Shown: positions 20,830 through 42,629 of the stretch, piece by piece
Layout: each line of letters starts with the position of its first letter
Position numbering within the stretch: the stretch's first letter is position 1
Source: Octopus vulgaris
Taxonomy: Eukaryota
Direction: 5' to 3'
Length of the DNA: 64,000 nt
Assembly: GCA_951406725.2 (NCBI GenBank)
Contig: OX597830.1
Coordinates: 15,438,001 to 15,502,000 of the forward strand
Position numbers and translations under genes: made by a program
Notes under the pieces: model-generated
What the model saw: the letters and a program-made list of their open reading frames with translations, nothing else
The model's database searches: none
Told to the model about the DNA's origin: nothing

Positions 20830-20910
20830 TCCTTTTGGGATTTGGTTTGCAAGATTCTTTATGTGAGTTCGTGTGTTGAAGCATATTCTGTTGTGTCTGG
20901 GGAGAGTCAT
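20830..20910 (-). pseudogene. Conserved terminal peptide MTLPRHNRICFNTRTHIKNLANQIPKG (putative Penelope-like ORF N-terminus)
   Basis: Manual translation; aligns without gaps to 34511-34591 and 42549-42629. Confidence 0.6.
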
Positions 20911-20981
20911 TTTCTTTTGTGTGCCTTATAATGCAACACACTCACCGGTAAAGTTTCCACTTATTTCTTATATTTATTTTC

Positions 20982-21018
20982 CTAAAATTTTCGTTGCGTC
21001 TTGCAACCTTTTCATTAG
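20982..21018 (-). ncRNA. Hammerhead motif variant (inverted partner of 21060-21096)
   Basis: CUA-AUGAAAA-G-GUUGC(AAGAC)GCAAC-GAAAA-UUU-UAG; perfect stems, position 3 mutated. Confidence 0.55.
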
Positions 21019-21059
21019 TCCTTGACCTTTTCAATAGTCTTGACTCTCGAGAGTCAAGA

Positions 21060-21096
21060 TTATTGAAAAGGTTGCAAGGCACAACGAAAATTTTAG
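21060..21096 (+). ncRNA. Minimal hammerhead motif with U3-A8 compensatory core
   Basis: UUA-UUGAAAA-G-GUUGC(AAGGC)ACAAC-GAAAA-UUU-UAG. Confidence 0.6.
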
Positions 21097-21999
21097 GAAA
21101 ATAAAAATAAGAAATAAGTGGATATTTTACCGGTGAGTGTGTTACATTATAAGGCACAAAAAGAAAATGACTCTCCCCACACACAACTGAATTAACATTA
21201 CTTTTCATCTTTATAAGGTCATTAAAAAAATACCAATCAAGTCCTGGGATCGATTTTCTTCTCTCCCTCTCTCTCTCTCTCTCTCCTCTTTTTTTCCGGC
21301 TTTGCATTTTCTATTTTATTTGGTGGTTGAACTACAGCACGGGAACCGCTACTTCAGTTTGGTAGTTGCCGTCAAGAGCAATGAGTGTTTTGATTTAGCT
21401 AGAGACGGCGATAAAAAAAACAAACGGATATTTTTCAGTCACATATATACATATCGTCACATAAAAACTTCAATCTGAAAAGATGTGATGAGGATGTTGG
21501 AGTAACAGAATCGTTAGAATACGTAATAAAATACCTTGTAGTATTTAGTTACGCCCCTTTACATTCTCAATTCGAAACTCTCCAATGTTGATTTTGCCTC
21601 GGGTTCTATAAAACAAAGTAACTGTTAGGTATCAAATCCACATTCTTTCTCCAAAGTCTGTGGCCCTTGTGTCAGTATTAGAAGCTATGATAACGTTAAG
21701 TCTTAGACACAAAGGGATATTTTGTCATGAAATATGAGGTAACGTACCAGACGTCTATTAGAGTGGCGGTAAAAGCATTGTGGTATTTGTACTGACTCTC
21801 TATATTCTGAGTTCAAATCCCGCTGAGGTCGACTTTACCTTTTCTTCTTTCGTGGCCGGTAAAAAAAAGTACCTGTCATCTACGGGGTCCGACGGTAAGG
21901 GCTAATGTCTTGTTTGCCTTGGGCTTAAATCAGAAATCAAAAGGCAAAAAGGCAGAAAATTGGTAAAATTGTAAGAGCTTCAGAAAGAATATATTGCGG

Positions 22000-39631: not shown

Positions 39632-40215
39632 TATTTCTTTACTACCCACAAGGGGACAAACAAGGACAGACAGACGGATTAAGCCGATTACATCGACCCC
39701 AATGCGAAATTGGTACTTTATTTATCGACCCCGAAAAGATGAAAGACAAAGTCGACCTCGGCAGAATTTGAACTCAAAACGTAACGACAGACGAAATACC
39801 TATTTCTATTTCTTTACTACCCACAAGGGGCTAAACATAGAGAGGACAAACGAGGACAGACAAACAGATTATATCGACCCCAGTGCGTAACTGGTACTTA
39901 ATTTATCGACCCCGAAAGGATGAAAGGCAAAGTAGACCTCGGCGGAATTTGAACTCAGAACGAAACGGCAGACGAAATACCTATTTCTTTACTACCCACA
40001 AGGGGCTAAACACAGAGAGAACAAACAAGGACAGACAGACAGATTAAGTCAATTGTATTGACCCCAGTGCGTAACTGGTACTTATTTAATCGACCCCGAA
40101 AGGATGAAAGGCAAAATCGACCTCGGCAGAATTTGAACTCAGAACGTAGCGACAGACGAAATACCGCAAAGCATTTCGCCCGGCGTGCTAACGTTTCTGC
40201 CAGCTCGCCGCCTTT
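39632..40215 (-). mobile_element. SINE family B multimer, 3 units, 16-bp TSD
   Basis: TSD ctggccttataatata at 39616-39631 and 40216-40231. Confidence 0.9.
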
Positions 40216-41216
40216 CTGGCCTTATAATATAATTGCTACTTACACCACGTAAGGGCATTCGCATAAACAAGACGGCTAGACAGACTTTATATTATTTTTA
40301 TAAATCTGAGAATAAACGGCCATGGCCACACAGTTAGCAAGTTCAAATGATTGAAGAATTTTTGTCGATTGTATTGACACTTACGTTTATTTTTTTTAAA
40401 ACCTAGTACTTATTCTATTGGTTCGTTTTGCCGAACGGTTAATTTACGGGGACGTAAACACACCAGCATCGGTTGTCAAACAATGTGGTGGAGGGGCAAA
40501 CACAGGCATAAATACACACACACGCACATAAATATGTTTGTATACAGTGGGCTTCTTTCAGTTTCCGTCTACCATATCCATTCACAAGTCTTTAATTGAC
40601 TCGAGGCTTTAGTAAAAGACACTTCCTCAAGATACCAAGCAGTGGGACTGAACCAGGAACCATGCAGTTGTGAAGCAAGCTTCTTACCACTCGGCCAAGC
40701 CTGCACCTACGTATGTATTTATGTAAGTATTACATACATGCATATGGATATGTGTTTGTGTGTGTGTGTGCGTGCGTTCGTGTGTGTGTGTGTGTGTGTG
40801 TGTGTGTGTGTGTGTGTGTGTGTATTGAGGTTTCGAACGACAGTGTGTCAGGTCGGTCGGGTTTCAAATTCGTTGGCGGTGTATTTTTAGGTTTCTCCAA
40901 TATTTTTTCGTAACATCACTCTCAGTGAATTTGAATTTGTTGGCTGTTTTTATCTTTCTTATTTCTTATCTTAATCCAGATTATTATGACAACAATATCA
41001 CGATTTATGGGGAGTGGGTATCCCGAGGAACCTTCTCGTAGCTAGCAAGGATGTTTTTAATGTTTCCAGCTCTGGTTTTACATTTGTTTTGAACTGCTTC
41101 TGTCTGTTCTGTACAAAAGATACTTGGCAAAGATTTCTTGCACCTGAATTACTCAGGGATAACCTTCAAAAGGAGAACCATTAAACTTACCTGTACTCAA
41201 CACGAGGCTTTTAGTA

Positions 41217-41805
41217 GGGCGGCAAGCTGGCAGAAACATTAGCACGCCGGGCGAAATACGTAGCGGTATTTCGTCTGCCGTTACGTTCTGAGTTCAAATT
41301 CCGACGAGGTCGACTTTGCCTTTTATCCTTTCGAGGTCGATAAATTAAGTACCAGTTACGCACTGGGGTCGATGTAATCGACTTAATACCCTATGTCTGT
41401 CCTTGTTTGTCCCCTCTGTGTTTAGCCCCTTGTGGGTAATAAAGAAATAGGTATTTCGTCTGCCGTTACGTTGTGAGTTCAAATTCCGCCGAGGTCGACT
41501 TTGTCTTTCATCCTTTCAAGGTCGATAAATTAAATACCAGTTACGCACTGGGGTCGATGTAATCGACTTAATCCCTATGTCTGTCCTTGTTTGTCCCCTC
41601 TATGCTTAGCCCCTTGTGGGCAATAAAGAAATAAGAATCGTTAGCTTGCAGAGCGAAATGCTTAGCAGCATTTCGTCTTCATGTCCTCAGTTCAAATTCC
41701 GCTGGGGTTGACTTTGCCTTTTATCCTTTCGAGGTCGATAAAATAAGTAGCAGCGTACCCACTCCCTTGAAATTGTTGCCTTGCACCGAAATTTGAAACC
41801 AATAT
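41217..41805 (+). mobile_element. SINE family B: head, 2 long-tail units, then an older short-tail monomer
   Basis: Direct comparison; ag(g/a)cttttagt flanks both ends. Confidence 0.85.
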
Positions 41806-42252
41806 TAGACTTTTAGTGTAGTTTAATTCCCTTGAAATCTGTGCTTAGCTGTTTCACGTGCCCATGCACAACCTTCTCAAATAACTAATCTATTTTTACA
41901 ATGGTTATCTATGTATCATTCTTAAGCTAGAGACACTGTCGATAGGCTCAGTATTTGTCCTGAGATAACATCTTTTTAGGGTCTTGCGGGGGACATATCC
42001 TACAATAACAATGTGTGTACTTTAAGTATGATGCATAAATAACTATTTTACTAAAATGGAGTACTACTTCAATAGTGTATACCAGATTTTTTTCTATTTT
42101 TGTTTTCTTTTTTTGTTGGTTTATATTACATAACCCCTCCTTAGCTAACTTACTAATTTTATTTCCTTTTACTAATAAAATTCAGCAACATATCTACTGA
42201 GCTTTCATCCTTACGTTTTTGCCAACAACTATAATGATATTTTGTTGTCTAG

Positions 42253-42629
42253 GGAGAGTAATTACGCCATTATTATTAACACACGCACTGGTTCAATTCC
42301 ACTTCTTTATCATTAGCCATTTGATTAAATATCCAATTAATTAATCAGTAAGATATTTTACAGTAAATCATTTGTTCTGTTTTTGTTTTGTTTTGTTTTT
42401 ACGAAAAAAAAACAAACAAAAACAAAACAAACGACTGACTGTTTATCCAAGTTAGGCAAACAATCGATTGGTTATTGGATATTTAACCAATTGACTAATA
42501 ATAAAGGAGTGGAATTGAACCAGTGCGTGTGTTATTAATGTTGGCGTAATGACCCTCCAAAAGCATAAGAAAATTTGTTTCAACACATGGTTCCACATAA
42601 AGAATCTTGCAAACCAAATACAAAAGCGA
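42253..42629. mobile_element. Decayed fold-back Penelope-like element (arms ~42253-42346 / 42466-42558)
   Basis: Imperfect ~93-bp inverted repeat; right arm runs into the conserved peptide. Confidence 0.7.
42549..42629 (+). pseudogene. Conserved terminal peptide MTLQKHKKICFNTWFHIKNLANQIQKR
   Basis: Manual translation; gapless match to two other copies. Confidence 0.6.

Follow-up and report, generated by a model that had tools for sequence, protein, structure and literature searches.

Three fold-back elements with a common reading frame

The stretch analysed here, C17:15438001-15502000 of the Octopus vulgaris genome (64,000 nucleotides (nt) in all, hereafter the window), contains three fold-back elements, referred to as elements or copies 1 to 3, whose shared reading frame and relation to Penelope-like elements (PLEs) are the subject of this work. 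A previous sequence-only reading of the window had reported an open reading frame (ORF) of 26-27 codons in three places, and all three were recovered on re-reading and translation: at 20910-20833 (-) in copy 1, where it translates to MTLPRHNRICFNTRTHIKNLANQIPK, from 34511 (+) in copy 2 (MTIPKYNNICFNTRHHIKNLAQQIYKR) and from 42549 (+) in copy 3 (MTLQKHKKICFNTWFHIKNLANQIQKR). The alignment of the three copies from the ATG to the end is gap-free, in accordance with the reported lack of indels, and the DNA upstream of the ATG indeed aligns poorly. A 33-nt degenerate core pattern has just three matches in the window, those of the three copies, and had none in 100 shuffles; genome-wide (2.8 Gb in 227 contigs, the scope of all genome-wide counts given here) it is found at 3,732 places, against none for the reversed control. 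The common stop of the three copies was likewise borne out, the sense arms ending at ORF +79/83 in copy 1, +81 in copy 2 and +81/82 in copy 3; the arm of copy 1 ends at a 15-bp target site duplication (TSD) and that of copy 2 runs into (TA)n.

The description of the elements as fold-backs holds for copies 1 and 3, which are near-symmetric hairpins, whereas in the uneven copy 2 an inverted arm of 256 nt is fused directly to an 82-nt sense piece that begins at the ATG, and the whole sits between two (TA)n tracts. A gtg(a/c)gtgtgtt motif, said to lie about 25-35 nt 5' of each ATG, is present in copies 1 and 3, at 24 and 15 nt respectively, but in copy 2 only as its reverse complement within the inverted arm; in intact pseudo-long terminal repeats (pLTRs) of family B, to which copy 2 belongs, it is located 21 nt 5' of the ATG. 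The relic of a long interspersed nuclear element (LINE) proposed to border copy 3 could not be verified, as three ORFs in the flank gave no significant Pfam family, two being without any match and one matching only RPA_interact_C (E 0.034, 15.1 bits, cut-off 25).

By blastn, the inverted arm of element 1 corresponds to ORF 26..-116 of a family-A read-through copy (91% identity) and its sense arm to ORF -113..+89 (90% identity), with the centre of the palindrome between GACTCTC and GAGAGTC. The inverted arm of element 2 corresponds to ORF 26..-239 of the family-B locus L044 (96% identity), its outer end merging into (TA)n, and its sense arm to ORF 0..81 (98% identity). Because the inverted arm of element 3 was not alignable by blastn to the family-A reference, its limits were set by eye (Table 1).

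Table 1. Parts of the three fold-back elements and their immediate flanks (window positions; ORF positions are counted from the ATG)
Feature	Position	Strand	Remarks
Element 1 TSD, inverted-arm side	21192..21206		GAAAAGTAATGTTAA; longest common flank string = 15 nt, perfect
Element 1 (family A), inverted arm	21049..21191	+	PLE sense on +; pLTR about -116 to ORF +25/26; no tail
Element 1, sense arm	20832..21048	-	pLTR remnant and ORF +1 to +79/83, tail (+27..+82) included
Element 1, PLE ORF-start remnant, 26 codons	20833..20910	-	ATG 20910-20908; N-terminus continues into long ORF in L078, L079, L080
Element 1 TSD, post-tail side	20817..20831		First 4 bases GAAA also fit ORF +80..+83
Element 2, (TA)n microsatellite, inverted-arm flank	34220..34259		Read from sequence
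Element 2 (family B), inverted arm	34255..34510	-	PLE sense on -; ORF about +19/26 to pLTR -239; no tail
Element 2, sense arm	34511..34592	+	ORF +1..+81/82 only, i.e. 27 codons including tail
Element 2, (TA)n microsatellite right after tail	34595..34646		Read from sequence
Element 3 (rare family C), inverted arm	42240..42403	-	Complementary arms read; limits by eye
Element 3, sense arm	42404..42630	+	pLTR remnant, ATG 42549, ORF +1..+81/82

Uninterrupted copies and the identity of the frame

The first 30 genome places of the core pattern fall into two main families, A (copy-1 type) and B (copy-2 type), all 30 stop at the same position, and (TA)n very often lies next to it. The ATG region of family B is found at 4,399 places genome-wide. 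In fold-back copies, upstream sequence on the pLTR side stands first as its reverse complement and is followed by sense sequence, with an arm joint that varies from copy to copy, whereas family-B copies that do not fold back extend linearly upstream, in some cases for more than 1 kb, to reach a coding region ending ...VVYSIRC...YVGET...IENKPSLNRKLEW. In two family-B loci of the O. vulgaris genome, L031 and L044, the ATG and its 27 codons MTIPKYNNICFNTRLHIKNLAQQIFKR run on in frame; the read-through frame is open for 765 amino acids (aa) to the end of the locus and has an in-frame stop just 5' of the ATG (TGNM...). A single 941-aa frame in L044 contains both a reverse transcriptase (RT) and an endonuclease (EN) domain of GIY-YIG type, and the locus comprises three successive units on the same strand, with ATGs 4,589 bp apart and the same pLTR before each; L031 is arranged likewise. 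The order within a unit is pLTR, ATG and 27 codons, N-rich stretch, RT, C-x4-C-x2-C, GIY-YIG, 3' untranslated region and pLTR again, and since these units stand in tandem arrays, the tail, as we call the ORF piece retained on one side of the fold-backs, is the sequence that follows the pLTR.

With ORF residues 28-265 as the query, the O. vulgaris genome yielded 152 matches, and open frames of 1,310-1,312 aa are found in 10 of the best 30. The family-B copies with such frames lie on many contigs and are about 99-100% identical, and due to these near-identical open copies family B looks young and possibly still mobile. Twenty more-diverged matches of the same residues were examined for their N-termini. 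Family-A read-through copies (L078, L079, L080 and others) carry the copy-1-type peptide followed by a homologous ORF, and a family at only 36% protein identity (L075, L076) displays the same N-terminus, MAYKHLPRCNCFRFSTRSQIKLLAMRVHLR..., colinear and without indels. Likewise, relatives from other sources with 41-48% RT + EN identity have similar N-termini in which (F/Y)NTR..I recurs (P0036, MALKPINYGYNTRSII...; P0024, ...SFDTRDTINLI...; P0016, MVIPKPN...). Whether some copies continue into RT and GIY-YIG, a check proposed together with the sequence-only reading, is thus answered by L031 and L044 and by families A, B and that of L075.

Among 110 homologues of the octopus ORF, the best named one is an O. 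vulgaris hypothetical protein (98% identity, "Reverse transcriptase domain-containing" in UniRef). A first Pfam scan of 623-aa and 270-aa pieces, with E up to 0.01, returned only a weak RVT_1 match and nothing for the N-terminal region; the RT region reaches 20.3 bits against RVT_1 (cut-off 29.6) and the C-terminal 150 aa reach 21.2 bits against GIY-YIG (E 3.7e-4, cut-off 22.6), while P0062, a homologue matching the query at E 7e-116, clears the GIY-YIG cut-off with 30 bits. Another homologue, P0108, an O. vulgaris "dynein regulatory complex subunit 6-like isoform X6", shares 99% identity with the PLE query over 13% of the query's length, and this gene model seems to have absorbed a PLE fragment.

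According to the sections of Craig et al. (2021, MBE 38:5005, PMC8557442) drawn on here, PLEs are marked by an RT fused to GIY-YIG, partial-tandem pseudo-LTRs, a 5'-truncated copy in inverted orientation next to the unit, a tail that is short and confined to one end, and a bias to (TA)n, and every one of the marks listed there is present in the octopus families. The RT is followed by GIY-YIG in a single ORF, as in C-terminal-EN PLEs, with borderline scores in octopus, and pLTRs stand in partial tandems in L044 and L031. An adjoining inverted 5'-truncated copy accompanies 19 of 33 tail-bearing copies by blastn, and copy 3 by eye, and at L022 the inverted pLTR arm is paired with a sense copy extending into the EN domain. 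The tail occurs at one end. Within the same sections of PMC8557442, the Penelope, Neptune, Nematis and Naiad clades share with the octopus families the pLTR tandems, the adjoining inverted 5'-truncated copy and the one-end tail, as well as a bias to (TA)n or other microsatellites and, apparently, a CX2-5CxxC upstream of GIY-YIG; they differ in that the octopus tail is longer and no hammerhead was found, canonical C-terminal-EN clades usually having a pLTR hammerhead. In the L044 translation the corresponding motif is C-TDNY-C-TV-C upstream of VVYSIRC...YVGET, and this CX2-5CxxC-type motif may suggest a Neptune- or Nematis-like clade; CCHH inside the GIY-YIG core, the companion mark of that type, was assessed by eye. 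The proposal that the shared peptide is the N-terminus of a Penelope-like ORF carried as the 3' extension of the pLTR therefore holds in families A, B and that of L075.

End points and arms of the copies

Genome-wide, 2,476 exact tail ends of family B were counted against 30 exact tail/ORF read-through junctions (41 when as many as 2 mismatches are allowed); ORF +82 is the terminus of about 99% of family-B copies. In a sample of 33 tail-bearing copies, 30 from the genome and three from the window, aligned by blastn onto read-through copies, the sense arms end between +67 and +102 with a mode of +82, 27 of them at +81..+91, the early ends being overrun by microsatellite and the late ones being chance matches to AT-rich flank; none of the 33 reads through, with references reaching +400. 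The inverted arms of families A and B end elsewhere: an adjoining inverted arm (outer end above -40, no more than 450 nt away from the sense arm) was detected in 19 copies, and all 19 of these arms have their outer end at +25..+28. A second sample of 30 places was picked by the ATG region and is hence unbiased for the tail: 14 end near +82, 16 near +26, and none reads through. Five of the 16 tail-less ends have a tailed opposite-strand partner within 1.5 kb, and none of six inverted partners of tailed copies carries the tail. As sense arms end at +82 and inverted arms at +25..+28, the tail corresponds to ORF +27..+82, i.e. 56 nt, on one side only. At one locus, L082 (C7:105578600-105579752), the inverted arm includes the antisense tail, so that the tail is occasionally found on the inverted side, in agreement with the "either end" of the literature.

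The positions at which the copies end, another point put forward for checking, are thus not random but, in nearly all copies, fixed near +82 or +26, and a fixed reverse-transcription start inside the ORF, as previously proposed, fits these statistics, inferred from DNA ends only. Insertions favour (TA)n, at least (TA)4 being found within 30 nt after the end in 20 of the 33 copies vs 6% of random 30-nt windows, and the 15-bp TSD of copy 1 belongs to the single clean copy. Arm joints are variable, the inner ends of inverted arms ranging from -72 to -239 and the sense starts from 0 to -1140. Within family B, arm breaks cluster at -197..-205 from the ATG in 4 of 10 inverted and 3 of 19 sense arms, and 5 of 19 sense arms start at -19..-30 (L005, L007, L017, L018, L023, L025, L028, L030); these clusters might correspond to a pause site or to the place where transcription begins in the pLTR. 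Two copies, L013 and L014 (C1, about 9.20 Mb and 9.22 Mb), lie 19 kb apart with identical flanks and therefore represent a segmental duplication, not two insertions.

Based on the frame, the units and the ends, we consider it highly probable that the three fold-backs are 5'-truncated insertions of three PLE families, that the shared ORF is the first 27 codons of their own RT/GIY-YIG gene of about 1,310 aa, and that the +82 end is the likely start of reverse transcription inside the template RNA. Thousands of short copies, and many long hairpins scored by Rfam as sub-threshold microRNA (miRNA)-like, would also suit a self-propagating non-autonomous family resembling miniature inverted-repeat transposable elements (MITEs) or short interspersed nuclear elements (SINEs), one that is duplicated as a whole hairpin and has a 3' tail in common with a PLE partner. 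However, the joints between the arms vary over the ranges given above, so that the copies have no hairpin master; each of the two arms is colinear with the autonomous element's pLTR, some inverted arms are paired with a sense copy that extends into the EN domain (L022), and the ends are the PLE-specific +26 and +82 instead of being terminal inverted repeats with a constant TSD length, which makes such a family very unlikely.

Foldback or MITE DNA transposons resemble the octopus elements in their long inverted arms and short overall length, but differ in that here a 56-nt extension is found on one side, joints vary, the arms are pieces of pLTR and ORF start, and there is one clean TSD of 15 bp; with unequal ends (+26 vs +82) and variable arm joints, a transposon of this type was discarded. 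In twin priming of L1, the other strand of the target is primed as well, which leads to an inverted 5' segment joined to the 3' segment. The octopus fold-backs are similar to this process in that an inverted segment would stem from a second priming on the opposite target strand; in contrast, the inverted piece of L1 is a different, more upstream part, so that no hairpin arises, and L1 is not known to have either a fixed internal start or a one-sided tail.

Selection on the N-terminal peptide

The many synonymous differences previously noticed between the window copies amount to a third-position excess between families: pairwise, the differences at the first, second and third codon positions are (5,4,11), (2,5,11) and (6,2,12), and the ratio of non-synonymous to synonymous substitution (dN/dS) is 0.19, 0.09 and 0.17. 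Within families, on the other hand, 10 synonymous and 31 non-synonymous departures were found in A (12 of 13 copies kept) and 5 and 21 in B (17 of 19 copies kept), ratios near the share of synonymous sites, and the third-position excess is absent; two decayed family-A read-through copies display a dN/dS of 0.6-1.0. The peptide is thus under purifying selection between families, and the inserted copies decay neutrally. Since the constraint exists between but not within families, selection acts on the autonomous lineages and not on the inserted fold-backs, which removes the alternative offered earlier of a selected micropeptide, no peptide-level constraint being found among inserted copies. In fact, a micropeptide gene in each element could draw on the ATG, the lack of indels and the synonymous excess among the three window copies, but the identical codons begin the 1,310-aa ORF, the frame of truncated copies runs into any flank, such as the TSD or (TA)n, and both the departures within families and the decayed family-A copies lack the expected signature, so that we regard this explanation as exceedingly improbable.

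Between families A and B, nucleotide identity is 75% in the tail and 59% in codons 28-107, with synonymous differences of 0.52 and 0.71, respectively; the lower synonymous difference of the tail, based on small counts, hints at an additional nucleotide-level constraint there.

Comparison with PAc and a possible mechanism

PAc is a Poseidon-clade PLE of Anolis carolinensis, the recombinant protein of which starts reverse transcription inside the RNA, at two adjacent sites 111-118 nt from the beginning of the ORF (Frangieh et al. 2024, Mob DNA 15:12, PMC11167929). According to the same study, the genomic tail spans the interval from one start site to the other, the protein cuts and extends both strands of the target and prefers AT-rich DNA, the RNA must include the first 172 nt of the ORF, and the start site in vitro is the same on both strands. 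Similarly to PAc, the octopus copies have their ends within the 5' portion of the ORF, the tail is bounded by two sites close to each other and the targets are AT-rich; moreover, the cleavage and extension of both strands by PAc would yield head-to-head arms, as in the octopus fold-backs. In contrast to the 111-118 nt of PAc, the octopus sites, known here from sequence alone, lie at about +26 and +82, and none of the octopus families was found to contain the hammerhead that PAc has. The RNA that PAc requires for insertion extends past the start site, and the octopus elements may resemble it in this respect.

By analogy with PAc, we may hypothesize that the element protein would bind the 5' ORF portion of a transcript that extends beyond the pLTR, cut both strands of AT-rich DNA, and prime one cDNA at +82 and, on the opposite strand, another at about +26; head-to-head joining of these 5'-truncated cDNAs would then give a fold-back with a one-sided 56-nt tail. 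The DNA ends, seen in the light of PAc, make +82 a likely internal start of reverse transcription.

Hammerhead and stem searches

No hammerhead was found by any of the searches: a gathering-score scan of the whole window with Rfam gave no hits of any family, and Rfam scans of L044 1900-3100 (E up to 10) and of window positions 20000-43500 (E up to 1) gave only sub-threshold matches, mostly miRNA-like on microsatellites and hairpins, with a few to transfer RNA (tRNA), small nucleolar and small Cajal body-specific RNA and small RNA in the window scan. A regular expression for the CUGANGA...GAAA core matched nothing in the pLTRs of families A and B and of copies 1 and 3, its sole match being inside the ORF at about +115 and without Rfam support. 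The ribozyme invoked by the sequence-only reading is therefore unsupported, and the lack of a hammerhead sets these families apart from typical canonical PLEs; Naiad and Chlamys PLEs are likewise not known to have one. A hammerhead-bearing retrozyme or other ribozyme repeat was rejected as well, the self-cleaving motif not being found by Rfam or regular expression. Among the sub-threshold matches, the PLE hairpins at window positions 20937-21141 and 42358-42444 resemble plant and animal miRNA precursors, e.g. MIR5380 with 71 bits vs a gathering score of 150.

The tail-less end at +25..+28 of families A and B lies about 26 nt from the start codon, the same distance as the hammerhead cut site of PAc (PMC11167929), which may be a coincidence, as no hammerhead is detectable here. 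This distance, together with the fact that the evidence consists of DNA ends, may be taken to indicate that the same PLE insertions end at +82 and +26 because the template RNA was processed or terminated there, reverse transcription starting at the end of the RNA as in LINEs. Against this explanation, neither a hammerhead nor any other Rfam family is found there and the pLTRs are devoid of the CUGANGA...GAAA core; in PAc, extra RNA past the start site left the product unchanged, and the requirement extended over the ORF's first 172 nt (PMC11167929). A start at the RNA end would also have to be reconciled with a candidate stem that spans +82. This stem, TCTTGC (+58..63) with GCAAGA (+108..113), was predicted by RNAalifold from ten read-through copies of several families and contains a further hairpin at +91..105; pairing in the stem is found in 93% of cells vs 23-44% with the partner slid. 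Accordingly, we judge a start at the end of a processed or terminated RNA to be unlikely, and prefer an internal start.

Several observations weigh against the PLE insertion with internal start that we favour. No read-through copy was found for family C, that of copy 3, whose specific pattern occurs at only 2 genome places. The Pfam scores of the octopus ORF for both RT and GIY-YIG fall just below the curated cut-offs, and a phmmer search of the 941-aa ORF against PDB matched no solved structure by sequence. The tail of 56 nt exceeds the 30-40 nt of the literature, and whereas PAc displays no strand difference in vitro, the inverted arm in octopus is always at the proximal site (19/19). The pLTRs contain no hammerhead detectable by Rfam or regular expression, although canonical C-terminal-EN PLEs usually have one. 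The stem is nearly invariant, with one compensatory pair and a covariation score reached by 31 of 500 shuffles, and is kept only as a candidate. Finally, DNA ends are what is seen, not the start of reverse transcription itself, and these ends taken alone would equally allow a template RNA with its 3' end at +82.

If the candidate stem matters, copies ended at +82, being without GCAAGA (+108..113), its downstream half, cannot serve as templates again and would be dead on arrival. We tentatively propose, as a possibility that we hold to be rather doubtful, that the first 82 nt of the ORF are dual-coded in this hammerhead-less canonical PLE lineage, specifying a conserved N-terminal peptide and at the same time a cis signal for two strand-specific cDNA starts, +82 for the sense and +26 for the opposite strand, the distal one being fixed by a stem that needs 3' sequence. 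Were this the case, no tail-ended copy could be reused as a template, and the fold-backs, thousands in number, would all have arisen in a first generation from a few dozen masters.

Two further searches touch the same region. A long-range pairing of GTGTGTT, from the motif mentioned above, with AACACAC of the tail was considered, given runs of 7-8 bp in most families, and was dismissed because, for most sequences, 10-38 of 60 control windows contain runs of the same length. None of the sequencing runs recorded as RNA was listed for the stretch. In contigs from four runs of uncertain kind, loose ends into (TA)n lie at L044 2214, 2211 and 2218, near +82, in all four runs, and at L044 2270-2273, near +26, in three of the four; none of these contigs bridges +82 by 31 letters on both sides. 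Since they may simply mirror genomic copies and none bridges +82, nothing follows from them for transcription.

Significance for PLE biology and annotation

An internal start of reverse transcription with two tail-defining sites has already been published for PAc (PMC11167929), and the octopus pattern is an ordinary PLE trait. PLEs are also already annotated in O. vulgaris, the part of the 2026 repeat annotation drawn on here giving 31 PLE families among the recently active elements (PMC13282606). In the literature searched, no description of a cephalopod PLE tail was found, and therefore the positions +26 and +82 and the 56-nt tail may be new detail. The biochemical finding made for PAc in 2024 is here extended from one lizard PLE to several diverged cephalopod families and thousands of natural end points, with two differences, namely the positions of the sites (+26, +82) and their strand-specific use in the genome. 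Family B, if still mobile, is a possible natural test case for the PLE mechanism. For annotators, abundant hairpin repeats with a short ATG-initiated ORF are PLE debris, and not genes, miRNA precursors or MITEs.

Other features of the window

About 240 nt 3' of copy 3, a tRNA-like match at 42873-42942 (+) reaches 25.1 bits, below the gathering score of 29, and is probably the head of a tRNA-derived SINE. Further downstream, at 43715-44759 (+), at least five head-to-tail repeats with a period of 184 bp appear as near-identical consecutive stop-to-stop frames of 73 aa (TQRGQTRTDKRIK...).

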